DNA of 64,000 bases from a virus (IMGVR_UViG_3300030329_005959:1-64000); one strand, 5' to 3'; shown: positions 11,516 to 50,238, counted from the first letter of the stretch. The notes: generated by a model from the letters alone, not told the origin. Numbers and translations: made by a program.

Positions 11516-13006
11516 ATGGATTATAAATACACCACCACTTTTGAATCCCCCCTTTTGGCTTGCGAGATTAATGAATCTTCATTGATTTCCAAGGCGTCTT
11601 TAGAGACTTTAGCCCCGCTTGTTCCTTCTGATATTGATTACGAAAGTAATATAGATTTACTTGGAGTAGCCTTTAATGCGGCAGTAGTAAACAAATTTAA
11701 CAAAAACGGGGATGGTATGGACGCGGCTACAGCCGTGGAATATACAAATAACTTTATTCATAAACCCACCAATATCGAACACGACAAGAATAAGATCGTG
11801 GGTCATATCGCAGCTGCGGGTTATAGTGAATTTGGGTCTAATAAATTATTAAGCGCAGAACAAGCTAAAAAGACTACAGGGCCATTTAATATCGCTCTGG
11901 GTGCCGTTCTTTATAAAACAGTTAATGAAAATTTTACTACTCTCGTAGAAAAATCTCTCGATCCCAATGACGCTGCTTTTGAAAAGGTGTCCGCTAGTTG
12001 GGAAGTAGGTTTCAATAACTATGTTTTGGCGGTGGGAAGCGATATGTTGAGTGAGGCTAGAATCGTTTCCGATCCTGATGAAATTTTAGAATTACAAGGG
12101 TTTTTAAGGAGTTGTGGTGGTAATGGCACAACCGATGATGGGGAAAGTGTTCACAGGTTGATTGTTGGGGATATTTATCCCTTGGGTATTGCATATACTC
12201 TTAATCCTGCTGCCCAAGTAAAAGGTCTCTATAGTCAAATACCTAAAAAGTCCCATGTTTTTATAAATGATAAAAGGGATAAAATTTCACAAAATAATAA
12301 TTTAAATGTAAACAACGAAAAGAACTTTATCGACATGGAAATGGAAAAGACTCTGAACGAACTTAAAGAACTTCTAATTGAGAAGAAATTCTCTAAAGAA
12401 GCAGTCGCCTCAATGACTGATACTTTTGACCAAGCTATCCGAGAGCGGGATGAACAATACCGCAAGGATATTGAGGAACAAAGGCTCGCCAAAGAGGGCG
12501 TAACGAAGGAATACGAGGAACTGAAGTCCTCCGTTTCTGAGTTGGAAGAAAAACTTAATTCCGCTAATGAGCGGATTTTAGTTTTTGAAAAAGAAAAGAA
12601 AGCTGAAGAGGCGGTTGCATCTTTCAATGAGCGTATGGACAAGCTGGACGAAAAGTTTGAACTTGACGACGAAGATCGCGGGTTTCTTGCTACTGAGCTT
12701 AAGACTGTGGAAAGCGACGAGGATTATGAGTCCTTTGCGTCCAAATTAGAAGTTCTTTGGAAGCATAAGAACAAAGAGGTTCAAGCAGAGTTTGATGCTC
12801 AAATCCAAGCACGGATTGACGAAGAGGTCGCCAAGAGGGTTTCTACAGCTTCTACCGAAGAGGTGAAGATCGAAGAGGCCCTTGATAGCGCCGAGCAAAC
12901 TGACCCAGCTGTTTCTAATGCTAACGAAGCTGTGGCGTCAGAGAAATCTAGCTTCCGCGATAAATTTAAAGCCGCGTTTTCCCGCGACAATATTGAAATT
13001 TCTTAA
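11516..13006 (+). CDS. Prohead protease-scaffold fusion
   Basis: N-terminal FNKNGDG, KPTNIEH...IVGHI and SASWEVG protease-like motifs; long acidic coiled-coil C-terminus; between portal and capsid. Confidence 0.7.
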   Translation: MDYKYTTTFESPLLACEINESSLISKASLETLAPLVPSDIDYESNIDLLGVAFNAAVVNKFNKNGDGMDAATAVEYTNNFIHKPTNIEHDKNKIVGHIAAAGYSEFGSNKLLSAEQAKKTTGPFNIALGAVLYKTVNENFTTLVEKSLDPNDAAFEKVSASWEVGFNNYVLAVGSDMLSEARIVSDPDEILELQGFLRSCGGNGTTDDGESVHRLIVGDIYPLGIAYTLNPAAQVKGLYSQIPKKSHVFINDKRDKISQNNNLNVNNEKNFIDMEMEKTLNELKELLIEKKFSKEAVASMTDTFDQAIRERDEQYRKDIEEQRLAKEGVTKEYEELKSSVSELEEKLNSANERILVFEKEKKAEEAVASFNERMDKLDEKFELDDEDRGFLATELKTVESDEDYESFASKLEVLWKHKNKEVQAEFDAQIQARIDEEVAKRVSTASTEEVKIEEALDSAEQTDPAVSNANEAVASEKSSFRDKFKAAFSRDNIEIS

Positions 13007-13688: not shown

Positions 13689-14855
13689 ATGAAAATTACT
13701 TTAAAAAGAACTCCAGAACAAGTCGAGCTTGTAAAAGCTATGGCTTCGCGGAATCGCGCTGTTGCTTATGAAGCGCAGGTAGCTCTTGCTGAATTCATCG
13801 GACCAGTTTTGGCCGAGGTTCTCAATAATGCTCCTACCGTAAGCAACCTGTTCCAGTCTCTTCAGTTTGATGCTGATGACAACCCCAGCATTCCGCTGGA
13901 TCTCTACTACAACATCGCTGACGAAGATTACGTTAGGGTGTGGACTCAGAGCCACGCAGGGGGTCTCCCCAGTAACCAAGTATTGCCTACCGCTTCTGAA
14001 TTGAAGCTGGCTACTTACAGCCTTGATACTGCGGTCGATTTTGATCGTCGTTACGCTGCTAAGAGCCGCATGGACGTTGTGAGCAAGACTTTCACTCGGG
14101 TGGCACAAGAGATTCTTCTTAAGCAGGAGCGCACTTCCGCGACTCTTCTTATGACTTCTCTCCAAGGGGCAGCGATTAAAACTTCGCCTAACTTCGAACA
14201 GAAGCAGGTTTTCCGTGGAGCGCTTGCTGGGTCTCTCCTTCTTGACGATATTAACAATCTGTTTACTCTTGGTAAGCGTATCAACAGTTCGTGGATTGCA
14301 GGAACTGCCACTACTCGCACTAGGGGGATTACCGATCTGATCGTTTCTCCTGAGATTGTGGGAAGTATCCGCGCTATGGCTTACAATCCTGTCAACACCC
14401 GTGGTGGTGATGGTGCGGGAGCCGCAGGAGATGCTACAACTGCTAATCCTATCGCAGCTACTGATGAGCTTCGCAACTCAATCTTCAACAATGCAGGTTT
14501 GACTAGCTTCATGGGTCTTAACATCTTGGAATATCAGGAGATGGGGCAGGGCCAGAAGTTCAACACTATTTTCGACACGGCGGCAGGTGGCACTACTTGG
14601 GACACCTTTGGTGACGCTGCTGGTGCTGGTGCTGCTGCTTTCAACGGTGATAACGAGGAAATCGTTGTTGGTGTTGATCGCAGTCGCGATTCACTTATCC
14701 GCGCCGTTGCTACGGACGCTGAAAGCGGAAGCGAGTTCAACCTGATCGCTGATGATCAGTATAGCATCCGTCAGAACAAGATCGGCTACTTCGGCTCTGT
14801 CGAAGAGGGCCGTGTGGTTCTCGATAACCGTGTTCTTATGGGAGTTATTTGCTAA
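13689..14855 (+). CDS. Major capsid protein
   Basis: 388 aa, after protease and decoration genes, followed by a strong terminator. ITDLIVSPE and FMGLNILE resemble HK97-fold segments. Confidence 0.8.
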   Translation: MKITLKRTPEQVELVKAMASRNRAVAYEAQVALAEFIGPVLAEVLNNAPTVSNLFQSLQFDADDNPSIPLDLYYNIADEDYVRVWTQSHAGGLPSNQVLPTASELKLATYSLDTAVDFDRRYAAKSRMDVVSKTFTRVAQEILLKQERTSATLLMTSLQGAAIKTSPNFEQKQVFRGALAGSLLLDDINNLFTLGKRINSSWIAGTATTRTRGITDLIVSPEIVGSIRAMAYNPVNTRGGDGAGAAGDATTANPIAATDELRNSIFNNAGLTSFMGLNILEYQEMGQGQKFNTIFDTAAGGTTWDTFGDAAGAGAAAFNGDNEEIVVGVDRSRDSLIRAVATDAESGSEFNLIADDQYSIRQNKIGYFGSVEEGRVVLDNRVLMGVIC

Positions 14856-14875
14856 TCAAAACCCTATATAAATTT

Positions 14876-14906
14876 AAAGCCGCTCTTTCGGGAGCGGCTT
14901 TTTTTT
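14876..14906 (+). terminator. Rho-independent terminator after the capsid gene
   Basis: AAAGCCGCTC-tttcgg-GAGCGGCTTT followed by a T-run. Confidence 0.9.
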
Positions 14907-14939
14907 GTGCAATTTTTGCTATAAGTGTATATAATAGAT

Positions 14940-15386
14940 ATGGCTAAGAAGAAAGCAGCTAAGAAAAAAGCCCCCTTTAAAGAGGTAACCACAGGTCAAG
15001 AACAGCCTGTTAAAAAGGGACTTATTGAGGAATTGGAAGAGCTTAAGGAGAAGGGGGAGACGAGCACCGCCCGATATCAAGAACTATTGAAAGAGGTGGA
15101 AGTTATTTTCGGCACAGGTGAAACCAATACGTTTGGGACTAATGATATAAACGTCCTTAAAGAAAGGCTTAATAAAATGAGCAAAGCTGATCTTCAAGAG
15201 TTCTCTAGGAAGGTGGGAGTAAATCCCTATTATGACAGGGGGATTGTCTTAGATAATATTATTAAAGAATTTAATCGTTATCAAAGTCGTGGTAATATTC
15301 ACACAGCCCCCCAAGCTGTTCCTGCTTTAGAATTAGATCCTGATAATCCAAAGCATAAAGATCTTCTAGATTGGTTAAATAGCTAA
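14940..15386 (+). CDS. Hypothetical protein
   Basis: MAKKKAAKK...; ATG 9 nt after GTGTAT. Confidence 0.7.
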   Translation: MAKKKAAKKKAPFKEVTTGQEQPVKKGLIEELEELKEKGETSTARYQELLKEVEVIFGTGETNTFGTNDINVLKERLNKMSKADLQEFSRKVGVNPYYDRGIVLDNIIKEFNRYQSRGNIHTAPQAVPALELDPDNPKHKDLLDWLNS

Positions 15387-15405
15387 ATAGTGTGTAATAC
15401 ATTAT

Positions 15406-15900
15406 ATGGCCACCGTATTAGAAGATCTCGCTTCAGGAATTGTAGTCACCGAATTTGACGGAGATACAGGTATAGCAACTGTGGCTAATGTTAGTGGCTG
15501 GCTTTACGAAAACCTCGGCCAAGTTAACACTTATTTATATACTGATTTTAGCGGAGCTGGCGCTAGTGGCACTTATGGCGCAATGGATATAGAGGCTCAA
15601 AATGTCCTCAAAGAACTCTACCTTTGTAATTACTATAATAAGCAAGCGAGAAACGCCCTCAGAGGCATCGCGACCTCTACGGTTAGTGGAGATAACATTT
15701 TGTCTTTAAAGGACGGAGAAAGCTCTGTGACGTTCGTTAACCGCAATGAGGTGTCGAAGGTCTACAGGGGGCTCGCAAGCGATTGTATGGAGAAGGTGAC
15801 GCGATTAGCGGCTCAATACAATATCTATCAGGCGCAGCCGCGCCAGCTAGGAGGTATAGACGCAAGCGGGTATGCAACAAGTTATCCTAATCCCTATTAA
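15406..15900 (+). CDS. Putative head-tail adaptor
   Basis: Helical N-terminus, then ILSLKDGESSVTF beta hairpin typical of adaptor proteins; follows the capsid gene. Confidence 0.55.
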   Translation: MATVLEDLASGIVVTEFDGDTGIATVANVSGWLYENLGQVNTYLYTDFSGAGASGTYGAMDIEAQNVLKELYLCNYYNKQARNALRGIATSTVSGDNILSLKDGESSVTFVNRNEVSKVYRGLASDCMEKVTRLAAQYNIYQAQPRQLGGIDASGYATSYPNPY

Positions 15901-15905
15901 AGTGA

Positions 15906-16139
15906 TTAGAGAGAGTCTTGGATAGCTTTTTTATTCTTAAGATATTCAGCGCGAAGAGCTTTTTCGTTTTTGGGAGAAGCTTTCCTGTCAGCGACGAATT
16001 TCTTTTTTAACTCTCCAAGGGTGAGAGGAGCAGCAGCCTTAGGTTGAGGGGTTTCCTTTTTAGGAGCGGGGGCCTCTTTTTTAGGCTCTTTTTTAGGCTC
16101 GTTTTTTTTAGCGCGAGTAGTCTTTTTAGAAGAAGGCAT
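15906..16139 (-). CDS. Small Lys/Pro-rich basic protein
   Basis: KKNEPKKEPKKEAPAPKKETP repeats. Confidence 0.65.
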   Translation of the reverse strand: MPSSKKTTRAKKNEPKKEPKKEAPAPKKETPQPKAAAPLTLGELKKKFVADRKASPKNEKALRAEYLKNKKAIQDSL

Positions 16140-16141
16140 GA

Positions 16142-16432
16142 TTAAAAGTGGTTTGGTGCTTCATCAAAAATAGCCCCTATAAGAATCCCTACATCAGAGG
16201 TATATTCGATCCCAAAATGAGCGGCGGCTTCTTTCATGAAGTTTGGGTTTTCAAAATGTTTATTAACGTGGAAATATACCTCTTCAAGATTAGTCCATGG
16301 GGGAGTCCAAGAGGAAGATGGTGCCGTGACAGAGGCTTTCTCTGCCACGACTTTTTTCTTCGGAGATTCTTCTTTCTTAGGAGATTCTTCTTTTTTGCTA
16401 GGCTTACCCCAGCTGTGATGTTTAGAACTCAT
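16142..16432 (-). CDS. Small protein with SPKK repeats
   Basis: KKEESPKKEESPKKK, encoded by an 18-bp direct repeat near 16361-16396. Confidence 0.65.
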   Translation of the reverse strand: MSSKHHSWGKPSKKEESPKKEESPKKKVVAEKASVTAPSSSWTPPWTNLEEVYFHVNKHFENPNFMKEAAAHFGIEYTSDVGILIGAIFDEAPNHF

Positions 16433-37638: not shown

Positions 37639-39276
37639 ATGTCTAGTAAAAAGATCTCTGTGTGCGCTTTATGGCGCGATAGCGAATCCCATATTAATAG
37701 AACTTTAAATCAATTTGAAGATTTAGAAGAGTTGGATTTTGATTTTGAATATTATTTTTATGAAAATGACTCTAAAGATAATACTTCTACTTTGCTCCAA
37801 GCGTGGCTTAAGGACAGAGAGGGCATATTAAAAACTGAGACTTTGGGTGCTACAAAATTTGGCAGCACTCATGATCTGGAACGTATGCAGCTTCTGTCTG
37901 ACTGTAGAAACAAATGCAAAGATTTACTGTGTGATACTGAATCAGAATATACACTACTTGTTGATTCGGATATTATTTTTAATAAAGAAAATTTATTAGC
38001 CCATTTTGAGACCATCAAATCACTGGATGATTGTGTTATGTTAACTCCTAATGTGAGACAAAACATACCTGATCTTATCCAACATAATTCGCAAGATTCT
38101 TATTACGACATTTTACCTTTCTGGGACAGCGAAAAGAAAAATGCTTTAGGCTGGTCAAATTGCCCCTTCAGGAATGGCATCGACATTATGAATTGGAACC
38201 TTGGTAAACCCATTAAATGTTTTTCAGCCTTTGGTGGCTTCGCTTTAATAAAGACAGAGGTTCTTAAAAAAATCAATTGGTCTACAATAGGGGCTAGCGA
38301 GCATGTTAATTTTTGCCAAGAAATTAATGATTACGGCTCTATTTATATTGATCCCAAAAATAAAGTTTATGCCGAAGTAGAATTAGATTATTTACATTTA
38401 GAGGCTTTTAAAGAGACTGCTGTGGATAGGAGCAGGAAACCAATAACAATTGATCATGAAATTTTTACGAGTCAGAACTATAAAAAATTAAACTCTATAA
38501 AAAACCCAAAGGAGAAATCTAAGTATATTAAAGATTTGTTTTTGGAAAAAACAACCACCCAAACTGAAAAGCTTAAATTTCTTAAAAATTGTTTTCAAGG
38601 AGAAAAGGCTGTCCTAGTCTCCTGCGGCCCCTCTATTACTGAGCAAGATGAAGAAAAATTAAAATCCATCTTGGAAACCCGATTAGTTCTATCAATTAAA
38701 CAAAGCTTTGATCTTTTCTCCGAATATGTGGACATCCACTTCTATAATTGTGCTAACTATAAAAAATATGATTATTCTATACATAAGCCAATTGTATTTG
38801 AGGCTTCTACGGTTTATGGAAAGCTAGGGGAGTGTGATTTACTCTTTAAAATACCACAAGGAATGGATTATGATAACTCTTTATGTTCTCACAAAGACTT
38901 GGATTCTTGGACTTTAGAAAAGCAACCTTTTGAGAGGTGCTATGGCCCAGGAATCGAGTATGAAATAGTGTTATTTGCTGTAGAACATTTAGGCATATCC
39001 GAGTTAGTTACAATAGGTTGGGACAATAAACTTATAAACAACGGTGACGCTGATAGACAACATTTTTACGATAAAAACACAGGTTCGAACGAACAATGGA
39101 TTCAGGCGAACAAGGTTTCTAGCTCAGAGTTTTCTGTTAGCAAACTAAGCACAGAAGAAGAAATGACATCTGGCTTTATAATGGATTTTTATAATTGGCT
39201 TAAATCTAAAGGATGCGAGTTAAAAATAGTTTCTGAAATCAGCCCCGCTCCAAACGAAATTAAAACAACCTTATGA
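37639..39276 (+). CDS. Fusion: GT-A glycosyltransferase plus Maf/DUF115-like (sialyltransferase-fold) domain
   Basis: N-half: YENDSKDNT, LSDCRNK, LVDSD (DxD), SAFGGFAL, SEHVNFC. C-half: LKNCFQGEKAVLVSCGPSI, HLGISELVTIGWD, HFY. Confidence 0.7.
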   Translation: MSSKKISVCALWRDSESHINRTLNQFEDLEELDFDFEYYFYENDSKDNTSTLLQAWLKDREGILKTETLGATKFGSTHDLERMQLLSDCRNKCKDLLCDTESEYTLLVDSDIIFNKENLLAHFETIKSLDDCVMLTPNVRQNIPDLIQHNSQDSYYDILPFWDSEKKNALGWSNCPFRNGIDIMNWNLGKPIKCFSAFGGFALIKTEVLKKINWSTIGASEHVNFCQEINDYGSIYIDPKNKVYAEVELDYLHLEAFKETAVDRSRKPITIDHEIFTSQNYKKLNSIKNPKEKSKYIKDLFLEKTTTQTEKLKFLKNCFQGEKAVLVSCGPSITEQDEEKLKSILETRLVLSIKQSFDLFSEYVDIHFYNCANYKKYDYSIHKPIVFEASTVYGKLGECDLLFKIPQGMDYDNSLCSHKDLDSWTLEKQPFERCYGPGIEYEIVLFAVEHLGISELVTIGWDNKLINNGDADRQHFYDKNTGSNEQWIQANKVSSSEFSVSKLSTEEEMTSGFIMDFYNWLKSKGCELKIVSEISPAPNEIKTTL

Positions 39277-40295
39277 AGACTTTTTTCAAAAACAAAAAAG
39301 TGTTAGTAACTGGAGGAACAGGCTCTCTCGGACAAAAACTTGTAGAAAGATTGCAGTCTTATGATGCTTTACCTATAGTTTACAGCAGAGATGAAGGCAA
39401 ACAGGCTCTCAACTTTAAAAACAATAACAACTTAATCAAAATTATTGGGGATGTGAGAGATTTTGACAAACTTAATACATCTCTCAAAATTCACAAACCC
39501 GATTTTATTATACATGCTGCGGCCTTAAAGAGAATTGATGATATGGAGTTTTATCCTGATGAATGTGTCAAAACAAATGTATCAGGATCGGAAAACGTGG
39601 CGAGAGCCGCCCTGCAAAACGAGATTCAGAAATGTATATTAGTATCCACCGATAAAGCCTGTAAGCCAATTAATGTTTATGGGTCTTCTAAATTTTTAGC
39701 GGAAAGATTTTTTACTAACTATGATTACAATTCGGATACGACAATCTTTTCGTCAGTTAGATATGGAAATGTGATTGCCTCCCGAGGTTCTTTTATACCA
39801 CTATGGGTTGATGCCATACAAAAAAACGAGAGTATAAAAATTACATCTACTGAATGCACCAGATTTCTGTTCACCTTAAAAGATTCTGTAGATACAGTTT
39901 TAAGCTCACTCCAAAACAGTGTGGGAGGGGAGGTATTTGTTCCCCAGATCAACTCTTATACACTTCCTGTTTGCGTTAAAGCTCTTGAATATTTGTTTGA
40001 TAAAAAAGCCAAGACTCACATTATCGGACTGAGACCTGGAGAAAAGCTGCACGAAGATATGTTAGCTGAAACAGAACTTCCGTTTACTTATAAGGTCGAG
40101 GACCATGATTTTTTGCAATTATTTAATGAAGAGCCTACCGAGCGTGTTGATTTATTGCAAATAAGACCCCAATATACCAAAAAAACATATCAAACTTTTT
40201 CGAAATATGAGGGTCCGCACTTCAACTCAGAACTTTGGGTTAAGGAGGATGTCGAAGAATTATCACGATTGATTGAGTCAGGCTTAAAATGTTAA
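39273..40295 (+). CDS. pseB: UDP-GlcNAc 4,6-dehydratase (PseB/FlaA1 family)
   Basis: TGGTGSLG, YSRDEGKQ, HAAALK, STDKACKPINVYGSSK, VRYGNVIASRGS, GLRPGEKLHE. Confidence 0.88.
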   Translation: MKTFFKNKKVLVTGGTGSLGQKLVERLQSYDALPIVYSRDEGKQALNFKNNNNLIKIIGDVRDFDKLNTSLKIHKPDFIIHAAALKRIDDMEFYPDECVKTNVSGSENVARAALQNEIQKCILVSTDKACKPINVYGSSKFLAERFFTNYDYNSDTTIFSSVRYGNVIASRGSFIPLWVDAIQKNESIKITSTECTRFLFTLKDSVDTVLSSLQNSVGGEVFVPQINSYTLPVCVKALEYLFDKKAKTHIIGLRPGEKLHEDMLAETELPFTYKVEDHDFLQLFNEEPTERVDLLQIRPQYTKKTYQTFSKYEGPHFNSELWVKEDVEELSRLIESGLKC

Positions 40296-41545
40296 CATCA
40301 GAAGAAATATTATGGCAAAACGCCATTAGACTAATGCCGCGAGGGACGCAAACAATGAGTAAGTGTCCCGATCAGTTTGTAGAGGGGGTCTATCCCAAGT
40401 TCGCTAAAAAATCTAAAGGAGCTTATATCCAAGCTCTAGACAACAAGTGGTATTTGGACTACATGTGTGGGTTGGGTCCAATTATTTTAGGCTTTAATCA
40501 CAAGAAAACAAACAAGGCTATATCCAACCAACTCAAAAAAGGAATTATTCATTCTCTCCCTACGCTGTTGGAGCAAGAACTGGCTGCTTTAATATGTGAT
40601 AGTGTTCCGTGTGCGGAGCAGGTTAGATTTGCTAAAAATGGAACTGATGTAGATCTCGCTGCGGTGCGAATAGCCCGTTCATACACTGGTAGAGAACATA
40701 TTGTTAAGTGTGGATATCATGGATGGGGAGACTGGCACGGCATCACTCTTCGTCCCCACGGCATACCTAAGTGTCTAGAAGAATGTGTTTCTGAGTTTGA
40801 ATACAACAACCTCGCCAGTTTAGAGAGCGAACTTTCTAAGCGCCCTGTGGCGGGGGTAATAATGGAAGCTCAAGCTCTGACAAAACCACAAGAAGGCTTC
40901 TTGCAGGGGGTTAAGGACTTATGTAGGAAGCATGGAGCGGTGTTGATATTTGATGAAGTAGTCACAGGGTTTCGTTGGGCACTGGGGGGCGCTCAAGAAC
41001 ATTATGGAGTCACTCCTGACTTATGTTGTTTAGGGAAAGGAATGGCTAACGGAATGCCTCTTAGTGCCATCGCTGGAAAAAAAGAATATATGCAAGAACT
41101 TAATCATGCATTTTTTTCTATGACTTTTGGAGGAGAATGTTTATCTTTAGCCGCGTCTATAGAAACAATAAAAGAGCTTAAAAATAAAAACTATAAACAT
41201 ATTTGGGATCTAGGAAACAAGCTGGACAAAGGAATAAAAGAAGCCGCCAAAAAGCACGGGTTAGAAATTAATTTTAGTGGAAGCGCCCCTCGACACAATC
41301 TATCATTTAGCGACAAATACGATGATCCTCAAGGCATGAAAGCTCTTTTTTATCAAGAAATGTTCAGAGAGGGTGTTCTTTTCCCTAATGTCATTTATAT
41401 ACAATTTTCTCACACTTTGAAAGACATAGAAAAAACTATAACAGCAGCAGACAAATCTTTTTCTTTTCTGAAAAAAAATCTCAATAAAATAGATTTAGTT
41501 TTGAGAGGAAAAAGGAGCATTAACATTTTTAGAAAAAACACTTAA
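40289..41545 (+). CDS. Class III PLP aminotransferase (GSA-aminomutase-like)
   Basis: YLDYMCGLGPIILG, VRFAKNGTD, GYHGW, LIFDEVVTGFR, PDLCCLGKGMANGMP. Confidence 0.9.
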   Translation: MLTSEEILWQNAIRLMPRGTQTMSKCPDQFVEGVYPKFAKKSKGAYIQALDNKWYLDYMCGLGPIILGFNHKKTNKAISNQLKKGIIHSLPTLLEQELAALICDSVPCAEQVRFAKNGTDVDLAAVRIARSYTGREHIVKCGYHGWGDWHGITLRPHGIPKCLEECVSEFEYNNLASLESELSKRPVAGVIMEAQALTKPQEGFLQGVKDLCRKHGAVLIFDEVVTGFRWALGGAQEHYGVTPDLCCLGKGMANGMPLSAIAGKKEYMQELNHAFFSMTFGGECLSLAASIETIKELKNKNYKHIWDLGNKLDKGIKEAAKKHGLEINFSGSAPRHNLSFSDKYDDPQGMKALFYQEMFREGVLFPNVIYIQFSHTLKDIEKTITAADKSFSFLKKNLNKIDLVLRGKRSINIFRKNT

Positions 41546-42486
41546 TGAAAGAAAAAATTAAAGAAATAGAACAGGCTCTTGATGCCCTTTTGCTCGATCA
41601 AGAAAACAGAGTAGATAGGTTTGATGCAAATTACATTGATGACTTTCACTTTATTCTGAAAGAAACCCATTCAATTAAAAAAACCGAAGACGAACACAAC
41701 GACAGTTTCAACAAACTTAAAAAGCTCGTTGGTGGGAATTCAAAATCTGTTAAAGAACTAGGCGAAACTATAAAAACCATAGAAGGATTAAACATATCTA
41801 AATATAAGCCAAAGGAATCTGACTCATCTACTAAATCTGAGCATAAGTATGATCAAACTTCTAGTTGGGACTCAGCTAAAGACCTCAAAGTTAATGACCA
41901 AAATAAAGATAAACTTAATCAACTTCAGGTCGATTATTCGGTTCTTAGTCATGCTAATCAAAAAGTCGCCCCTTCAGTTTTTTGGAGGCGCGACGGTTTA
42001 ACTGATGAAAAAAACCAGCTATTTAAGGATTTTTGTGCTGGAAAAAAAGTCCTATGCATAGGGCCAAGATGGGCCGAAGAGGTTTCATATATATCTAACA
42101 CCTTTAAGTGTGAAGCTCTTGGGTTAGATCTTTTTTCGAATAACAAAGATCTAGTAAAAGTCGGTGATATGCACGATATGCCTTTTGAGGATAACACCTT
42201 CGATGTAGTATATCAAAAGAACACTTTTAACAAATCTTACGACATTAGAAAATGTTTAGACGAGTGCGTGAGGGTTTTAGTCAATGGTGGCGTTATAATT
42301 TCTGACGAACTATTAGGATATAATATTGGAGTCAATGAAATTGCCCGAACGAGTATAAACAGGAATTCTTGGTATACCTCCTATCTTGATAAAACAGTAG
42401 ATGAGATTTTGTGTGACAAAGAAGTGTCCATAAACGCAAGCTGGGTGGATCTTGTTGGACTATATGCTGTTAAAATAAAAAAATAG
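41545..42486 (+). CDS. Class I SAM-dependent methyltransferase with N-terminal extension
   Basis: KVLCIGPR, GLDL, GDMHDMPFEDNTFDVV, ECVRVLVNGG. Confidence 0.85.
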   Translation: MKEKIKEIEQALDALLLDQENRVDRFDANYIDDFHFILKETHSIKKTEDEHNDSFNKLKKLVGGNSKSVKELGETIKTIEGLNISKYKPKESDSSTKSEHKYDQTSSWDSAKDLKVNDQNKDKLNQLQVDYSVLSHANQKVAPSVFWRRDGLTDEKNQLFKDFCAGKKVLCIGPRWAEEVSYISNTFKCEALGLDLFSNNKDLVKVGDMHDMPFEDNTFDVVYQKNTFNKSYDIRKCLDECVRVLVNGGVIISDELLGYNIGVNEIARTSINRNSWYTSYLDKTVDEILCDKEVSINASWVDLVGLYAVKIKK

Positions 42487-42488
42487 CT

Positions 42489-43178
42489 ATGAAGTCTATA
42501 GAAAACACTCTTTTTTTTATTCAAGCGAGGACTCAATCGACAAGAGTGCCTAACAAAATGTTAAGGCCGTTTGCTGATTCGAACTTATTTGAAATAGCTG
42601 TTAAAAAACTACTCAAGTCAGAGGTCATACCTAAAGATAATTTTTATTTATCTATAATGGATGAGGAGTTGATTAAAATAGCAGAAAAGTATAATGTAAA
42701 CTATTTTACGAGAAGCGAAGAGTCTACTCAAGAACCAGTTACTTTACCGAAAGTGTTTGAGTGGCACGACAAGCTACCGTTTACACACTATGTGAATGTA
42801 AACGCTTGCAATCCACTTCTTAAAATAGAAACCATAGACAGTTTTATCCAAAAATTTTTACAAACCAAATCAAGGGGACTGTTTGGTGTCTTTGAGAAAA
42901 AAACTTTTCTTTTTGGGTGTAATCACTCAATGTTAAATGAGTTTTATGGAGGCGAAAGACATTTATCCACACTGGAAACCAAGTTTGTGGAGACCTGTTA
43001 TGAGGCAGCTCATTCTTTGTATGCTGGTTGCGTAGAAGATATCAAAAAGCACATTTATATGGGCTCATTTACTAGCGAAAATGATCCTGAGTTCTTTATT
43101 CTTGATGAAAAAGAGTGTCTAGACATTGATTGGCCTTGGCAATTTGAAATGGCGGAAAAACTTTATTCAAATTCATGA
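42489..43178 (+). CDS. CMP-nonulosonate synthetase (NeuA/PseF-like cytidylyltransferase)
   Basis: IQARTQSTRVPNKMLRPF, NACNPLL, CLDIDWPWQF. Confidence 0.85.
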   Translation: MKSIENTLFFIQARTQSTRVPNKMLRPFADSNLFEIAVKKLLKSEVIPKDNFYLSIMDEELIKIAEKYNVNYFTRSEESTQEPVTLPKVFEWHDKLPFTHYVNVNACNPLLKIETIDSFIQKFLQTKSRGLFGVFEKKTFLFGCNHSMLNEFYGGERHLSTLETKFVETCYEAAHSLYAGCVEDIKKHIYMGSFTSENDPEFFILDEKECLDIDWPWQFEMAEKLYSNS

Positions 43179-43984
43179 AAGCAGTAATAATTGGTGGAGG
43201 CTCCATTGGTCAGCGACATGCGGGGAACTTAAAAGGTTTGGGTGTTAATACTAGAATTGTAGATATTGATGAAATAGAAACCATAGACTCTATCTTAAAT
43301 AATGGCTTTGATTTTGGTTTGGTTTGCTCACCGAATCTATATCATATAGAACATTGCACAAAATTAGCGGAATATAACATTCCAACCTTCTGTGAAAAAC
43401 CTTTTTATTCTGACGTTGACGGAGTGGCTTCTCTTTTAAAAACTGTTGAAGAAAAAAAATTAATCACAATGGTAGCGGCGAACTTAAGATTCGCGGACGA
43501 GGTGAAATCTATTGATTCTACAGCTAGCTATATTAATGTCCACTTTGGCTATGACCTAAAAAAATGGAGACCAGATTCGGACCACTTGCTTTCTTATAGT
43601 GCCAATAAAGCTTTAGGTGGAGGCATTCTCCTAGACGCTATACACGAACTAGATTACCTTTATTTTAAATTTGGTAAAATACAAGACATTTTTTATAACA
43701 AAAGCAAGTTAACAAATATCACAAATGATACCGAAGATTTGGTTGTCGGGCGCATTTATTTCGAAAGCGGAACTATAGCTGATTTTTCTCTTAACTATCT
43801 CTCGGAGGATTATCAAAGATATTACGATATTTTAGAGGACGGCGTTTTAAAAAGAAAAAACATAAATATCAGCAACCAGATGTATATAGACGAAATGACT
43901 TATTTTATTGATTGCGTGGTATCAAATACCCAAGGTATGAATAGTTTTAATGAGGCAAACACACTGTTAACTACAATTATTTAA
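43175..43984 (+). CDS. Gfo/Idh/MocA NAD-dependent oxidoreductase
   Basis: IIGGGSIGQRH, CSPNLYH, FCEKP, GGGILLDAIHELDY. Confidence 0.9.
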   Translation: MKAVIIGGGSIGQRHAGNLKGLGVNTRIVDIDEIETIDSILNNGFDFGLVCSPNLYHIEHCTKLAEYNIPTFCEKPFYSDVDGVASLLKTVEEKKLITMVAANLRFADEVKSIDSTASYINVHFGYDLKKWRPDSDHLLSYSANKALGGGILLDAIHELDYLYFKFGKIQDIFYNKSKLTNITNDTEDLVVGRIYFESGTIADFSLNYLSEDYQRYYDILEDGVLKRKNINISNQMYIDEMTYFIDCVVSNTQGMNSFNEANTLLTTII

Positions 43985-44809
43985 ATGGAAAATTGGGTCG
44001 AAAATAAAAAAGTGCATGATGCAGAATGGGGTATGCTCTATGCTTATTGTATGGCTAATGCTGCCAAATATACCAACATAAAAGAAGAGTGGGCGAATTT
44101 ATTCAGTTTTGAAATGGGGCACCCCCTTACCTTGAGATATATTTCAGAAGGTAAGCATAAGATTAACGGGAAGGAAGGATATTTTAAAAGCAAAAATAAA
44201 CATCTGCAAAACAGAATTGATAAATATATCACCCCAACGACTGATGCTATACTAGACTTAGGCGCTGGCTGGGGAAGGCACAGCATTCAGTTGGCCTTTA
44301 ATAATCCCGATTACAATATAATCTCGGGCGAACTATCAGATACAGGGAAGGCTATCCTAGAATATTTTATCGAAAAATATGATTTGTCTATCACAATCGT
44401 TGATTTTAATTGGCATGACCATAAATCTATAATTGATTTTTTGTCTCAGCAGTTTAGCTACGACGAAGGCAAAACTTGGTCTAACTTTAAAGAGATAATT
44501 ATTTTTACTAGCAATGCTATAGAGCAGATACCCAACATTAAGTTGGAATTCTTTACAGATTTATTGAGTTTGCCTATTAAAAAAATTAGCGCTATTCACA
44601 TCGAGCCTGTGAAGTTTCAATATGATAATGCTGATTTTCCCTTCTCCGAGGAAAATGCTCATTACAACCGAAACCTTAAAACGGTATTAGATAGTTTAGT
44701 ATCTTTGGGTCTTATTAAGATCAAAGATGTGATACCGCTCTATTGGGGGCACAGTTTAAATATAGCATCACAAAACAACACTCTAATAGAATGGGTAAAA
44801 CTTTTATAA
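43985..44809 (+). CDS. SAM-dependent methyltransferase-like protein
   Basis: ILDLGAGWGR motif I; FTSNAIEQIP, HIEP. Confidence 0.75.
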   Translation: MENWVENKKVHDAEWGMLYAYCMANAAKYTNIKEEWANLFSFEMGHPLTLRYISEGKHKINGKEGYFKSKNKHLQNRIDKYITPTTDAILDLGAGWGRHSIQLAFNNPDYNIISGELSDTGKAILEYFIEKYDLSITIVDFNWHDHKSIIDFLSQQFSYDEGKTWSNFKEIIIFTSNAIEQIPNIKLEFFTDLLSLPIKKISAIHIEPVKFQYDNADFPFSEENAHYNRNLKTVLDSLVSLGLIKIKDVIPLYWGHSLNIASQNNTLIEWVKLL

Positions 44810-45786
44810 TAGCTGAAGCAGGGGCAAATCACAATAGAAATTTTGACCAAGCGCTTTCTTTAATAGATGTAGCAAAAGAATCAGGGGCAACTGCGGTAAA
44901 GTTCCAAACTTATTCTTCAGAAACCCTCTATGCAGCAAGCACCCCAGATTTTGCGGGTTACAAAAACATAAGCAAACTAATAAAAGATATAGAGCTTCCC
45001 AGATCTTGGCAAAAAGATCTGAAGGATTACTGTGATGAGAGTGGGATTGAGTTTATGTCTACGCCTTTTGACGAGAAAGCTGTAGAAGAGCTTGTTGATT
45101 TAGGGGTTAAAAGACTTAAAATCTCAGGCTTTGAATCTACAGATCCTCGCTTTGTAAAATTAGTGGCGTCTACGGGTTTGCCAATTATAATGAGCATTGG
45201 AATAGGGTTTGACCTTAAATACGTAGAGTCTTTTTTAGAAATTTTTTCAGCGTATAACAATCACCTAACATTACTACACTGTAACAACGCTTACCCCACC
45301 CCCATGCAAGATGCAAACCTGCGGCAGATGGGGGTTTTATCGACGTATAAAGGTGTTGACGCAGTAGGTTTTTCTGACCATACAATTTCGACCCTAACCC
45401 CTTCTTGGGCGGTTGCTTTAGGAGCAACTGTTATTGAAAAACATTTTACTATAAGCCGCAAACTACGAGGACCAGACCACCCTTTTGCTCTTGAGCCTCT
45501 TGAACTTAAAGAAATGGTGGACAACATCCACTTGGCTGAACTAGCAATTAAAAACAAAGGTTCTGGCTTTACAAAATCTGAGAGGCCGTTTTCTAAAGCA
45601 ATGAGATCGGTGGTCTCTCTAGGGTCTATAAAAAAAGGAGAGGTTTTAACAGTTACTAACACTACTACCAAAAGGCCGTTTTTGGAGAATTCGGTTCCTG
45701 CATTTGATTATTTTAAGGTATTAGGTAAAATAGTTACAGAAGATATAGAAGACGACCAAATCTTAAACAAAAATCAAATCAAATGA
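44791..45786 (+). CDS. Nonulosonic acid synthase (NeuB/PseI family) with C-terminal SAF domain
   Basis: FIIAEAGANHN, AVKFQTY, FMSTPFD, LLHCNNAYPT, GFSDHT, IEKHFT, GPDHPFALEP, MRSVV...KRP. Confidence 0.93.
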   Translation: MGKTFIIAEAGANHNRNFDQALSLIDVAKESGATAVKFQTYSSETLYAASTPDFAGYKNISKLIKDIELPRSWQKDLKDYCDESGIEFMSTPFDEKAVEELVDLGVKRLKISGFESTDPRFVKLVASTGLPIIMSIGIGFDLKYVESFLEIFSAYNNHLTLLHCNNAYPTPMQDANLRQMGVLSTYKGVDAVGFSDHTISTLTPSWAVALGATVIEKHFTISRKLRGPDHPFALEPLELKEMVDNIHLAELAIKNKGSGFTKSERPFSKAMRSVVSLGSIKKGEVLTVTNTTTKRPFLENSVPAFDYFKVLGKIVTEDIEDDQILNKNQIK

Positions 45787-46610
45787 GCGACTTACAAAAA
45801 AGAATTGTAGAAGAATTAAAAGAAGACGGGATTTCTATCACTCATGTAGACGAATTATTTGGAGATACCTCTCGAAACTATTTTTCTAATTCTTTGTTGT
45901 ATTTTAATGAATTTCTATCCTCTCCACACATTAAAGAAAGATGTGATAGGATATCTTCAGGAAATCCCATCCAAGACAAGAATAAATGGTTTGAGGTAAC
46001 GGTTTATGAGTATTTGAACAGGGGCCTGAGTCTGGATGACGGAGATGTAATAAGAATGAACTTGTCTCCCGAAATTCTTTCTATCGCGGAAGCTTTTTAC
46101 GGGACTCTCCCTAAAGTTAGGAACATTCTTACTTGGGTTCACCCACAAAACCCCTCTACATCAGAAATTGGATCGCAGCGTTGGCACCGAGACAAAGAAG
46201 ATGAATCCATTTTAAAAGTTTTTATTTTATTTTCTGAAGTTGGCCCTAAAAACGGTCCCACGCAATTTATCAAGAAGTCGCAAGCGGGTGGAAAATATCA
46301 AGATATTTCATCTTTAGGAGGCGACGGATATGGGGGGTTAAACTATGAAATTCCAGAGGGAGAGCTTGTCTCTTGTGAGGGGACGGTAGGGACAATAATT
46401 TTTATGAACAACAATGGGGTTCATAAAGGAGGGTTGGTAAAAGACGGTATCAGAAGCCTAACTCACGCTTGTTTTCTAAAGCCTACAGCTCCCTTTCTCA
46501 ATAATGGAGTGTTGCCCTGTTTTGAATATGATTCCCAAGTTAATCTTTTAGACAGAGAGGGTGAGTCCTATCAAAATTTAAGCGATACCCAAAAATTTGT
46601 TCTCTCATGA
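45783..46610 (+). CDS. 2-oxoglutarate/Fe(II) dioxygenase (PhyH-like)
   Basis: SQRWHRD (HxD), NGPTQFI, GVHKGG (distal His), R-S/L. Confidence 0.8.
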   Translation: MSDLQKRIVEELKEDGISITHVDELFGDTSRNYFSNSLLYFNEFLSSPHIKERCDRISSGNPIQDKNKWFEVTVYEYLNRGLSLDDGDVIRMNLSPEILSIAEAFYGTLPKVRNILTWVHPQNPSTSEIGSQRWHRDKEDESILKVFILFSEVGPKNGPTQFIKKSQAGGKYQDISSLGGDGYGGLNYEIPEGELVSCEGTVGTIIFMNNNGVHKGGLVKDGIRSLTHACFLKPTAPFLNNGVLPCFEYDSQVNLLDREGESYQNLSDTQKFVLS

Positions 46611-47269
46611 CCGCTTTGGTAATATCGCAAGATAGACCTTGGACTCGCCAACTAATTAATAGTCTGGATAACGAGGAACATGAGATTTTTTATTCTTCTT
46701 TAATATCTCAGGAGTTAATTGAAAATATCGGCCCTGATTGGATATTTTTCTTTCACTGGTCCGAAATTGTTCCTAAAACTATATACAAAAATTATAAGTG
46801 TTGCGTAATCCACACTGGCAATTTACCTAAGGCGAGAGGAGGAAGTCCTCTGCAAAATCAAATATTAGAGGGCGTGACCGACACCCAAGTAAATATTATT
46901 GAAATGTCAGGTGAGATAGATGCTGGCGGGATATATTGCTCTGCTCCTATTTCTTTACAAGGGAGTATTACTGATATATGGCTTTCAATAGCTGATGTAA
47001 CCTCTAATTTAATAAACTTTTGTATGTCTGCAAACCCGAAAGCGGCTCCACAAAGGGGGAAGTCCCAAACATATAAACGCATTAAAAATAATAGTGTTAA
47101 CTTTAATATTGAAAAGCCACTTTCCTTCGTTTATGATCAGATTAGAATGGTGGATGATGATTTTTATCCTAAATGCCATTTGGACATCAATGGTTTTAGG
47201 TTAGAGTTTAGCAGGGCAAAACTGAAAACAGATAAAATTTTAGCCGATGTTACAATTACCAAAAAATAG
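46607..47269 (+). CDS. Formyltransferase (sugar N-formyltransferase type)
   Basis: IHTGNLPKARGGSPLQNQI, IDAGGI, YDQIRMVD...YP. Confidence 0.85.
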   Translation: MTALVISQDRPWTRQLINSLDNEEHEIFYSSLISQELIENIGPDWIFFFHWSEIVPKTIYKNYKCCVIHTGNLPKARGGSPLQNQILEGVTDTQVNIIEMSGEIDAGGIYCSAPISLQGSITDIWLSIADVTSNLINFCMSANPKAAPQRGKSQTYKRIKNNSVNFNIEKPLSFVYDQIRMVDDDFYPKCHLDINGFRLEFSRAKLKTDKILADVTITKK

Positions 47270-47912
47270 CGACATATTAATTTTAGCTGCTCATCCCGAT
47301 GATGAAACATTAGGGTGTGGCGCTACTGCGGCTAAACTCTCAGAGGAAGGTCACAATATCCACTTAATGACATTCACTGACGGGGTTGATGCCAGAGACG
47401 AAAAAGGAAAGGAAAACAGAAACAACAGGCTGGGCCGTATCTCCGAGATACTAGGAATTAATTCGTTTAATCATGGAGATTTTCCCGATAACAGCATGGA
47501 CGTTGTTCCCTTGTTAAAACTTTGCAAATACATAGAAAATCACTGTCCTTTTGCACCTGATTTAATTTTTACCCACCACCCCGATTGTCTTAATATAGAT
47601 CATGAAATGGTTTACCGAGCCACTTTAACCGCCTTTAGGCCGCAGTTTGGGTTAAGACAAACAATTTTGTCTTATTTTGTCCCGTCTTCAACCGATTACA
47701 ATCCTCAGGCTAACTTTAACGGGAATGTCTATGTTGACATCAAAGGCTATGTGGATAAAAAGCTAAAAGCGTTATCGGTTTATGACGAAGAGATGAGAGA
47801 ACACCCTCACAGCAGAAGCTACACTAATGTAAAAAATTTGTCTTCTACATGGGGAAGCGAAGTCGGCTTAGAGTCTGCTGAGAAATTTCAACTAATAAGA
47901 TCTGTTTCTTAA
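47247..47912 (+). CDS. PIG-L/LmbE de-N-acetylase
   Basis: AAHPDDETLGCG, IFTHH...NIDH, HPHSRS, AEKF. Confidence 0.9.
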   Translation: MLQLPKNSDILILAAHPDDETLGCGATAAKLSEEGHNIHLMTFTDGVDARDEKGKENRNNRLGRISEILGINSFNHGDFPDNSMDVVPLLKLCKYIENHCPFAPDLIFTHHPDCLNIDHEMVYRATLTAFRPQFGLRQTILSYFVPSSTDYNPQANFNGNVYVDIKGYVDKKLKALSVYDEEMREHPHSRSYTNVKNLSSTWGSEVGLESAEKFQLIRSVS

Positions 47913-47913
47913 A

Positions 47914-48444
47914 ATGATAGAAGGCAAGAAAGTAAATTTAACTAAAGTTGACAGAGAGAATATCGAACAACTTAGGGAATGGAGAAACAACCCGTTGTTG
48001 AGAAAATATTTTAGAGAACACCGAGAGATCAACAAAGATAATCAATCTTGTTGGTATGAAAGCAAGGTGTTGGGAGATCCTAATCAATATAACTTTGAAA
48101 TAAGGGCCAACAAAAACTCTGAACTAATCGGGCATTGCGGCCTTTATTATATTAATTGGATTAGCAGGACTGCTGAGTTTGGCATTTATATTGGAGATAG
48201 AGCCTATAGAAATGGAGGTTATGGTTCGGACACCCTTAGAACTTTAATTGGTTATGGATTTAAAGATTTAAATTTAAATAGAATTTGGTGCGAAGTTTAC
48301 GACAACAATAAATCCATTGAAGTATATAAGCATATTGGCTTTAAATACGAGGGCACATTAAGACAAAACTATTACAACGAAGGCCGCTATTGGGATGCTC
48401 ATGTTCTCGGTATGCTGAAAAGTGAATATGAATCAATCTCTTAA
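47914..48444 (+). CDS. GNAT N-acetyltransferase (PseH/RimJ-like)
   Basis: LREWRNNP, AEFGIYIG, YRNGGYGS, NKSIEVYKHIGFKYEG. Confidence 0.85.
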   Translation: MIEGKKVNLTKVDRENIEQLREWRNNPLLRKYFREHREINKDNQSCWYESKVLGDPNQYNFEIRANKNSELIGHCGLYYINWISRTAEFGIYIGDRAYRNGGYGSDTLRTLIGYGFKDLNLNRIWCEVYDNNKSIEVYKHIGFKYEGTLRQNYYNEGRYWDAHVLGMLKSEYESIS

Positions 48445-49195
48445 AGACAGCAAAGTATTAATTGTAGGGACTTCCAGTTCGGTAGCCCAATACGATAAAA
48501 AATTCCTCCAAGAAAAACGAGAAAACGGATATAAGATATTATCTTATTCTGGCAACTCTCTTATTTATTTATACGACATTGGATTTAAGCCTGATTTTTT
48601 CATTTTTTTCGACCCTTTTGCCTATACTATTGGAATAGGAAATATGGGGGAGCGATGCAAAGATTGGCTAAAGGAAACGACATATATAGGGTATGAAAAC
48701 AGCTCCTTTGAGTCTTTGTTGGCTACTAATAAATTCTTAAACGGAAGCGAAAGTTTTGGATTCACTGATTTTTTAAGAAACGACTCTTTGGTTAACCTCT
48801 ATAAAGACAATCCTCCTTCAGAAATCTTTAAAGAGTGTTTGTGTGAAAATCCCACAACCGTAAATTTTGATCAGATAGAAAATTTAAACTTGTCAGACAG
48901 GCTTTACATGATAAGAAACTATGGTAATGAATTAGACAAATTTACCTATTATCTTCTGCCAGTAATTTTTAATTTCTTCAAAAACCTTTCGACTTTAGAG
49001 TGTTTGGGTTTTGGGACATTTGGGTTCGACCGATACAGGGGAACATCAGGGTCTTATTCCGAATATGTAAGAGCATATGATCAAATCTTACCTCATTTGA
49101 ATAATGTCAAAATAAACCAAAATGTTGACATTAAATTAGAGGATGATAGTTATTTCAAAAAAGTCGAAACTCTCTTTTCTAAAGATATTTCATGA
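48428..49195 (+). CDS. Possible sialyltransferase-fold (GT42/GT29/Maf-like) protein
   Basis: KVLIVGTSSS, KPDFFIFFDP and LECLGF echo the GNGPS / PD / GFD pattern of that fold. Weak match. Confidence 0.4.
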   Translation: MNQSLKDSKVLIVGTSSSVAQYDKKFLQEKRENGYKILSYSGNSLIYLYDIGFKPDFFIFFDPFAYTIGIGNMGERCKDWLKETTYIGYENSSFESLLATNKFLNGSESFGFTDFLRNDSLVNLYKDNPPSEIFKECLCENPTTVNFDQIENLNLSDRLYMIRNYGNELDKFTYYLLPVIFNFFKNLSTLECLGFGTFGFDRYRGTSGSYSEYVRAYDQILPHLNNVKINQNVDIKLEDDSYFKKVETLFSKDIS

Positions 49196-50238
49196 AAAAA
49201 ATAATTATAACAGGGGTGACAGGTCAAGATGGTAGCCATATGGCAGACTATTTACTCCAGAATACAGAGCACACCGTCATTGGTGGAGTAAGAAGGTTAA
49301 GTGTTGAAAACCACAAGAACATCAAGCATTTAGAAAAAAACCCTCGTTTTTATCTTATTGATTTAGATGTAACGGATGCTCATAACACTGATAATGTAAT
49401 TTCTAGGGAAAAACCCGATTATTTTATTAATTTTGCTGCGAATTCTTTTGTGGGCAGCAGTTGGGATATGCCTGTAAATCACATGCAGACTAATTGCATG
49501 GCGGTTCTCTACCAGTTAGAAGCGCTTCGAAAGCATACCCCTCACTGCCGTTATTACAACGCAGGTAGCTCTGAGGAGTTTGGGAACGTTGTGACGACTC
49601 CGCAAGCAGAAGATCATCCCTTGCGCCCCAGAAGCCCATATGGAGCCTCTAAATGCGCTGCCCGACATTTGGTAAAAGTTTACCGAGACTCTTACAAACT
49701 TTACGCGGTTCAGGGTTGGTTATTTAATCACGAAGGTGTTCGCAGAGGGGAAGAATTTGTTACTAGGAAGATCACAAAAAATGTCGCCAAAATTTTAGCA
49801 CAATATGAAACGGGCAAAGTTGTGGTCCCGATGCAATTAGGCAATTTAGACGCGAAGAGGGACTGGAGCGATGCGGAAGATTTTATTAGAGGCGTCTGGT
49901 TGATGTTAAATCAAGATAGAGAAAACCCGAAGGACTACGTTCTTTCCTCTAATGAAACACACACTATAAGAGAATTTATTGAGGAAGCTTTTAATTTTGT
50001 AGGTTTCCACAGAAACGCTTGTGAATGGAAAGGGGAAGGTCTTGAAGAAAAATACATGCACGGTCGAGATTGTTTTGTGGAAATTAATTCAGATTTTTAT
50101 AGGCCAGCAGAGGTTGACTTGCTTTTGGGCGACTCAACAAAAGCGCGTGATGAGCTTGGGTGGAAACCAAAAACCACATTTATCCAGCTTATCAAAAAAA
50201 TGGTTGACAAGGATGTGGCGTCAGTTATTACTGGGTAG
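49192..50238 (+). CDS. gmd: GDP-mannose 4,6-dehydratase
   Basis: ITGVTGQDGS, AANSFV, SSEEFG, PRSPYGASK, LFNHE, FVTRKIT, LGNLDAKRDW, RPAEVDLLLGD. Confidence 0.95.
   Translation: MKKIIITGVTGQDGSHMADYLLQNTEHTVIGGVRRLSVENHKNIKHLEKNPRFYLIDLDVTDAHNTDNVISREKPDYFINFAANSFVGSSWDMPVNHMQTNCMAVLYQLEALRKHTPHCRYYNAGSSEEFGNVVTTPQAEDHPLRPRSPYGASKCAARHLVKVYRDSYKLYAVQGWLFNHEGVRRGEEFVTRKITKNVAKILAQYETGKVVVPMQLGNLDAKRDWSDAEDFIRGVWLMLNQDRENPKDYVLSSNETHTIREFIEEAFNFVGFHRNACEWKGEGLEEKYMHGRDCFVEINSDFYRPAEVDLLLGDSTKARDELGWKPKTTFIQLIKKMVDKDVASVITG

Follow-up and report, generated by a model that had tools for sequence, protein, structure and literature searches.

Nonulosonic acids, among them sialic, pseudaminic and legionaminic acids, decorate flagella, capsules and lipopolysaccharide. 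The canonical pseudaminic pathway of Campylobacter and Helicobacter runs through PseB, PseC, PseH, PseG, PseI and PseF; PseC normally aminates C4 of the hexose, which becomes C7 of the final sugar, and PseG normally releases uridine diphosphate (UDP). To our knowledge, all described nonulosonate routes use an aminotransferase of the DegT family together with a hydrolase of the PseG/NeuC type. Here we examined a sugar island in an uncultured marine phage recorded in IMG/VR (IMGVR_UViG_3300030329_005959). The window, by which we mean the whole 64-kb stretch of DNA analysed, is the first part of a record of 104,265 bases that CheckV rates as 94% complete. As in the canonical pathway, a PseB-type dehydratase, a NeuB-family synthase, a PseH-like N-acetyltransferase (GNAT) and a cytidine monophosphate (CMP)-transferase (CMPt) are encoded in one operon. 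In contrast to that pathway, the phage has neither a DegT-type PseC nor PseG; its operon also encodes a class III aminotransferase (AT3) and a dehydrogenase of the Gfo/Idh/MocA family (Gfo). The reading that we favour, at a probability of about 45%, is that AT3 and Gfo tailor a finished sugar, with host enzymes covering the PseC and PseG steps. Either outcome would be new, whether the phage relies on its host for these steps or the enzymes have truly been replaced.

The phage counterparts of PseB, PseI, PseF and PseH all fall below the equivalog cut-offs. The PseB-like protein scored 263 bits against the PseB model TIGR03589 (cut-off 408); its best match in PDB was Helicobacter pylori FlaA1/PseB (2gn4, 208 bits), and it retains the STDKA and YGxxK motifs of FlaA1-type catalysis. 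Since these motifs are kept, the phage enzyme probably makes a UDP-4-keto sugar, which then has to undergo amination or reduction and lose its UDP. A second type of viral PseB lies close to annotated inverting PseB enzymes. Unlike its canonical counterpart, the phage synthase scored higher on the NeuB/legionaminate-type model NeuB_NnaB (282 bits, cut-off 400) than on PseI (247 bits, cut-off 340), and its PDB matches were, in order, SpsE, PseI and NeuB. CMPt reached only 38.5 bits against PseF (TIGR03584, cut-off 205.7), exceeded the threshold of the broad CTP_transf_3 family alone, and had no sequence match in PDB; it is presumed to be the CMP-nonulosonate synthetase.

Absence of PseC, PseG and NeuC from a conserved viral cassette

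A preliminary description of positions 40289-43984 had proposed a non-canonical route in which AT3 and Gfo stand in the place of PseC and PseG. Its gene arrangement was confirmed, the coordinates of the open reading frames being exact: AT3 directly follows the PseB-like gene, and Gfo follows CMPt. It had reported the DegT, PseG and NeuC families as missing from the island, and this holds for the whole 104-kb record. Profile searches of the record found no DegT (PF01041), PseG (TIGR03590) or Epimerase_2/NeuC (PF02350) protein, and tblastn of the virus with verified PseC, PseG and NeuC seeds returned nothing meaningful even at E ≤ 1.

We extended the comparison to 19 related IMG/VR loci and 11 further distinct metagenome loci, making about 30 viral loci in all; because these loci are related by descent, their counts describe a pattern and are not independent trials. 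PseG and NeuC occurred in 0 of the 19 IMG/VR records. DegT was absent from 17 of these 19, and the other two carry only a partial, DegT-like open reading frame of 209 amino acids. This frame lies 7 kb downstream of AT3 (L012:18531-19157, and the same in L019), aligns only to positions 25-91 of the DegT profile and retains a stretch resembling SF..K..KGG; it could be either a miniature DegT-like protein or what is left of one. The 11 metagenome loci of the viral type were also without PseC and PseG. Thus, the designation of the route as non-canonical was borne out for the phage and, apart from the partial frame in two loci, for its relatives. A hunt for a hidden hydrolase among the conserved viral open reading frames yielded only GT2, GT4, weakly TagF-like (Glyphos_transf) and Maf-like transferases, and of these extra families the genome of the window has the Maf-like domain only.

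What the viral loci do share is a compact set of genes. When open reading frames were clustered over 20 loci (the window and the 19 IMG/VR loci), AT3 was present in 20/20, the PseB-like gene in 19/20, Gfo in 18/20, NeuB and CMPt in 17/20 each, and GNAT in 14/20, most of the gaps being in loci truncated at the end of a contig. AT3 and Gfo thus belong to the conserved core, as the preliminary description had it. The same five genes, mostly with GNAT, recur throughout the roughly 30 viral-type loci, and PseC or PseG accompanies them in none. The minimal cassette, represented by L007 and L010, reads PseB-AT3-CMPt-Gfo-NeuB-GNAT, with GNAT directly after NeuB. In metagenomes, AT3 has relatives of 70-79% identity in more than 120 protein clusters. 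The oxidoreductase-cytidylyltransferase-class III unit, together with a dehydratase and a synthase and without PseC or PseG, is carried by a large clade of aquatic phages that are uncultured.

The cassettes fall into two types, L009, L011, L013, L014 and L105-L112 being of the type other than that of the window. Across the types AT3 is the most conserved gene (66-79% identity to that of the window); NeuB and GNAT are 50-70% identical, and PseB, CMPt and Gfo only about 30% (Gfo 27-30%). This pattern implies that parts of the cassette have been swapped around a conserved AT3. The PseB of L009 is cell-like, with matches spread over many phyla and no pointer to a host.

AT3 and the oxidoreductase-CMPt-AT3 unit in cells

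AT3 shares the class III fold with HemL and is about 35% identical to it, and its best named matches are HemL models and structures (for example 3bs8, 222 bits). However, it scored 257 bits against the hemL model TIGR00713 (cut-off 527) and 332 against PRK06209 (cut-off 486), and it differs from HemL in clade, motifs and genomic context. A quick tree of 90 sequences was split with 100% support into 42 HemL-type genes without sugar context and 48 members comprising the viral AT3s and the cellular AT3s located in nonulosonate clusters. The viral AT3s were monophyletic on a long stem. Where HemL has NSPVRAF, which we take to be its substrate motif, the AT3 clade has QT[MF]SK, and a loop that presumably corresponds to the gating loop of HemL is about 10 residues shorter at the aligned position. 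K250 of AT3 aligns with the lysine of HemL that binds pyridoxal phosphate (PLP) and was invariant in 40 sequences. Judged by sequence, AT3 is a class III aminotransferase of the clade found in nonulosonate clusters, not HemL. We gave practically no credence to AT3 as an auxiliary HemL gene for tetrapyrrole synthesis, unrelated to the island; the scores below the model cut-offs, the separate clade, the missing motifs, the overlapping genes of the operon and the co-occurrence of NeuB in all loci speak against this reading.

The viral AT3s carry the motifs of their cellular relatives, with no obvious change in the pocket, and reach no more than about 48% identity with any of them (46% over a near full-length match). 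A scan of genome contigs with a single AT3 protein as query found no relative, and the nearest cellular AT3s were recovered by a search with a small AT3 alignment. Among the cellular loci with PseB near an AT3 homologue, PseC was present in 18/18 and PseG in 15/18. The usual cellular order, PseB-PseC-(aldo-keto reductase or Gfo)-CMPt-AT3-PseG-(GNAT or formyltransferase)-NeuB, is seen in about 15 loci across many phyla, the carriers including Janthinobacterium, Undibacterium, Colwellia, Endozoicomonas, Paenibacillus, Acidobacteriota, Verrucomicrobiota, Coriobacteriia and Azonexus. In two of these loci, curated models gave PseC 554 and 472 bits (cut-off 423) and PseG 267 and 214 bits (cut-off 154). 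Replacement of PseC and PseG thus fails as a description of cells, in which the AT3 family always stands beside genuine PseC and usually beside PseG.

The oxidoreductase-CMPt-AT3 unit was found in about 20 cellular loci. In most cellular clusters CMPt was the sole cytidylyltransferase detected within about 10 kb, and it is not orthologous to PseF; the oxidoreductase slot was held interchangeably by Gfo or an aldo-keto reductase. We also surveyed fusions among the best 150 representatives of AT3 homologues at 50% clustering, 50 of which are at least 499 amino acids long. Of these long proteins, 28 contained CTP_transf_3, 5 Gfo/Idh/MocA and 4 GNAT; NeuB, an NDP-sugar dehydratase-like domain, a kinase, a sulfotransferase and a phosphatase were each fused once, and one protein was a triple fusion of Gfo, CMPt and AT3. 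In the thaumarchaeon Nitrosotalea the order is NeuC-AT3-Gfo-NeuB, with CMPt and with neither a dehydratase nor DegT. This pathway has no 4-keto intermediate, and therefore the AT3/Gfo pair must make its own ketone. Beside the Nitrosotalea cluster lie a gene for a 678-amino-acid protein with TagF-like, weak Epimerase_2 and capsule-synthesis matches (L023:4368-6404) and, nearby, a sulfotransferase gene. We infer that these three proteins (oxidoreductase, AT3 and CMPt) work in cells as a functional unit added to complete nonulosonate pathways, the oxidoreductase and AT3 most likely oxidizing the finished sugar and then transaminating it alongside CMP activation.

Such genes have been noted before with no function assigned, as a class III aminotransferase and a reductase in the Pse cluster of the group I flagellin glycosylation islands of Aeromonas (PMC7874193), within the Pse cluster of the O-antigen locus of Legionella pneumophila Sg6 (PMC3694923), and as an aldo-keto reductase-SpsF fusion in the nab cluster of Vibrio (PMC7371886). 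The phage shares with these bacterial units the AT3 clade and the gene trio beside NeuB. The bacterial units stand beside PseC and mostly PseG, whereas the viral ones never do; the viral AT3s form a clade of their own, and the viral Gfo is about 60 residues shorter near the C-terminus in an alignment with the Gfo proteins of cellular clusters. Our literature searches turned up neither a description of pseudaminic pathways encoded by phages nor a function for the class III aminotransferase; a paper on Tenacibaculum O-antigens was not detailed enough to connect the aminotransferase and oxidoreductase genes that it describes with this family. The unit is widespread among clusters of bacteria and archaea, often in fused form, and suggests a sugar derivative that has no assigned pathway.

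Proposed tailoring of a finished sugar and the rival explanations

The preliminary description had also offered amination of another carbon by AT3 together with the oxidoreductase, and this option is the best fit to the fusions (Gfo+CMPt+AT3, Gfo+AT3 and CMPt+AT3) and to the NeuC/NeuB cluster. In the reading that we favour, AT3 and Gfo would be the phage copies of the oxidoreductase-transaminase pair that is added to such pathways in bacteria and archaea. Gfo would oxidize one of the free hydroxyls, either on the completed nine-carbon sugar or on its CMP ester, AT3 would convert the resulting ketone to an amine, and this amination would be coupled to CMP activation by CMPt. With a full Pse set, C3 bears the sole hydroxyl left on the hexose and becomes the ring oxygen, so an extra amination would have to come after condensation, at C4 or C8, which would be the only free positions in a pseudaminic-type sugar; C8 is our guess. 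Amination after condensation would fit the link to CMP activation. For the amination of hexose C4 (C7 of the final sugar) and for the release of UDP, the phage would rely on its host. If the favoured reading holds, the AT3/Gfo pair would not have arisen as a substitute for PseC and PseG, and Gfo would be a plain dehydrogenase that does not release UDP.

The structural comparisons are consistent with such a role. Gfo retains the GGGSIG and EKP motifs, and its structure model has a predicted local distance difference test (pLDDT) score of 94 and a template modelling (TM) score of 0.8 to family members. The top Foldseek matches of the model were GnnA, GenD2, inositol dehydrogenases and WlbA; GnnA, GenD2 and WlbA are dehydrogenases that feed aminotransferases, and an ESM Atlas search with Gfo returned generic Gfo clusters only. 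Like the phage, the GnnA/GnnB, WlbA/WlbC and GenD2/GenS2 systems pair a dehydrogenase of the Gfo/Idh/MocA fold with an adjoining transaminase gene, although their aminotransferases are mostly of the DegT type and that of the phage is class III. Class III C-6' aminotransferases of aminoglycoside pathways (7lld) aminate exocyclic sugar carbonyls. A complex prediction for AT3 and CMPt gave a score of 0.00 and is evidence neither way. The KdnB/KdnA enzymes of 8-amino-Kdo follow the same hydroxyl-to-amine logic on an ulosonic acid. By analogy with the 8-amino nonulosonic acid of Flexibacter maritimus (PMC3210612), which provides a precedent, the product of the unit possibly carries a third amino group.

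Several observations weigh against tailoring of a host-supplied sugar. The roughly 30 viral-type loci never have PseC or PseG despite heavy turnover of accessory genes, so that dependence on the host would be needed for every host. In most viral loci AT3 directly follows PseB with overlapping stop and start, the position of PseC in cells; and the minimal cassette, with its single aminotransferase and single GNAT, fits a diamino sugar whose synthesis does without PseC. Several simple cellular clusters, moreover, have two aminotransferases and one detectable N-acyltransferase. The first three of these points favour a take-over, in which the phage AT3 would aminate the keto group made by the PseB-like enzyme, with the UDP-hexose as substrate or, once condensation has taken place, a 7-keto nonulosonate. 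GNAT would acetylate the new amine, and UDP would be released by Gfo or by a non-specific host activity, making a self-contained six-step route of six genes. PseC is found in 0 of about 30 viral-type loci, as against 18/18 in cells; AT3 follows PseB immediately, the two genes sharing 7 nt; the six conserved genes map one-to-one onto the six canonical steps; AT3 is the best conserved gene where PseB, CMPt and Gfo drop to about 30% between cassette types; and the AT3 family plausibly accepts keto sugars already. Nevertheless, in cells with PseB, AT3 never occurs without PseC. The viral AT3 has the same motifs as its cellular relatives and a pocket without obvious change; every complete viral locus has kept Gfo, even though the ketone would form without it; and there is no candidate for the release of UDP. 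We know of no class III enzyme that aminates an NDP-4-keto sugar, which also counts against the take-over. On balance, we consider the take-over somewhat less likely than dependence on the host. A virus-specific, six-enzyme CMP-nonulosonate route, with the class III aminotransferase in the DegT role and UDP either freed by Gfo or made irrelevant by moving the chemistry to the CMP-sugar stage, seems rather unlikely to us.

Two more specific proposals would account for the missing hydrolase. Gfo could be a UDP-sugar hydrolase that depends on nicotinamide adenine dinucleotide (NAD) and replaces PseG/NeuC by transient oxidation at C3, elimination of UDP and addition of water, as in GH109, GH4 and NanOx. 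NAD-based elimination chemistry is established for GH109 and NanOx, and hence feasible for Gfo; PseG and NeuC were not found in any viral locus; and the best PDB sequence matches of Gfo, weak as they are (32 bits, E about 9e-7), are the sialic-acid enzymes RgNanOx (6z3b) and YjhC (6o15). By structure, however, NanOx and YjhC come no higher than ranks 30-40, after plain dehydrogenases; no GH109 entry was among the matches listed for Gfo, and the viral Gfo diverges to 27-30% identity between cassette types. The case is further weakened by the cellular clusters, where an aldo-keto reductase can hold the same slot next to a true PseG. The release of UDP by Gfo, as the preliminary description had suggested, thus finds no support in either the interchangeable slot or the nearest structures, which are sugar dehydrogenases partnering aminotransferases, and we regard it as very improbable. 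Alternatively, NeuB might condense a common free N-acetylhexosamine and CMPt activate the product, whereupon the PseB-like enzyme would dehydrate the side chain to a 7-keto-9-deoxy form, AT3 would aminate it, GNAT would acetylate it and Gfo would epimerize a centre. This late route on the CMP-sugar would use all six core genes and explain both absences, needing neither a UDP hydrolase nor DegT; substrates of the CMP-sugar kind would be in keeping with the fusion of AT3 and Gfo to CMPt, and the PseB-like protein of the window lies far under the PseB cut-off. Against this, the PseB-like protein keeps FlaA1-type motifs and finds its best matches among UDP-N-acetylglucosamine (UDP-GlcNAc) dehydratases, the second viral PseB type is near annotated inverting PseB, and the scheme is without precedent; its chances appear slimmer still.

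Layout of the island and accessory genes

The virus has a siphovirus-like look, with a 2362-amino-acid tape-measure protein, a large terminase, DnaE, DnaB, a RecA-like protein, ribonucleotide reductase and a Clp-like ATPase. The island matched no cultured phage by megablast, and no cultured phage had a similar NeuB or a close DnaE; the tblastn matches of AT3 in the cultured-phage collection proved to be bacterial HemL contaminants. The island is a run of genes on one strand, flanked by the reductase genes and the RecA-like gene, and several of its members overlap or directly adjoin one another. Its order is u545, PseB-like dehydratase, AT3, methyltransferase, CMPt, Gfo, u274 and NeuB, followed by a PhyH-like dioxygenase, a formyltransferase, a PIG-L deacetylase, the PseH-like GNAT, u257 and a GDP-mannose dehydratase. 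The start of AT3 overlaps the stop of the PseB-like gene by 7 nt, and Gfo overlaps CMPt by 4 nt.

Table 1 Features of the sugar island (positions in the window)
Feature	Coordinates	Strand	Match or remark
u545	37639..39276	+	weak MptE-like/Maf match (PF01973, E 0.017), weak GT2 match
PseB-type UDP-GlcNAc 4,6-dehydratase, divergent	39273..40295	+	PF02719 Polysacc_synt_2, 261 bits
AT3, class III PLP aminotransferase	40289..41545	+	PF00202, 160 bits (cut-off 30.5)
S-adenosylmethionine (SAM) methyltransferase	41545..42486	+	PF08241, 46 bits, residues 189-252
CMPt, divergent SpsF/KdsB-like cytidylyltransferase	42489..43178	+	PF02348 CTP_transf_3, 52 bits
Gfo/Idh/MocA NAD(P) dehydrogenase, short form, 269 amino acids	43175..43984	+	PF01408, 41 bits; PF22725, 34 bits
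Methyltransferase-like gene	43985..44809
NeuB-family nonulosonate synthase	44743..45786	+	PF03102, 232 bits
PhyH-like dioxygenase	45783..46610
Formyltransferase and PIG-L deacetylase pair, accessory tailoring	46607..47912	+
PseH-like GNAT N-acetyltransferase, sixth near-core gene	47914..48444	+	TIGR03585, 82.5 bits (cut-off 93.1)
u257	48422..49195		weak MptE-like/Maf match (PF01973)
GDP-mannose 4,6-dehydratase	49192..50238		TIGR01472, 330 bits (cut-off 415)

Around the core, accessory genes turn over heavily among the viral loci and include formyltransferase, PIG-L, methyltransferases, PhyH, radical-SAM enzymes and several glycosyltransferases. The methyltransferase between AT3 and CMPt is accessory rather than core, being found in only one of the 19 IMG/VR loci (L002) and in the metagenome locus L100. 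The formyltransferase/PIG-L pair occurs in many cellular and viral loci and could exchange an N-acetyl for an N-formyl group. The final sugar of the phage is probably heavily decorated. In some viral cassettes, a radical-SAM/SPASM or B12-binding radical-SAM enzyme is encoded between PseB and CMPt (L009:6349-7467; L013:5540-7189), which suggests further unusual tailoring of the sugar. One viral contig, L001, carries two NeuB genes (8964-9965 and 14735-15568) and two CMPt genes (11833-12537 and 15568-16254), and may make two different nine-carbon sugars.

The phage probably attaches the sugar as well as making it. Both u545 and u257 show weak matches to MptE-like/Maf (PF01973), the family of flagellin nonulosonate transferases. 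The homologue of u545 in L001 (5957-7990) matches PF01973 at E 4e-4, combined with a GT1-like part, and u545 is a probable Maf-like nonulosonate transferase. The GDP-mannose 4,6-dehydratase that closes the island hints at a second, deoxyhexose branch.

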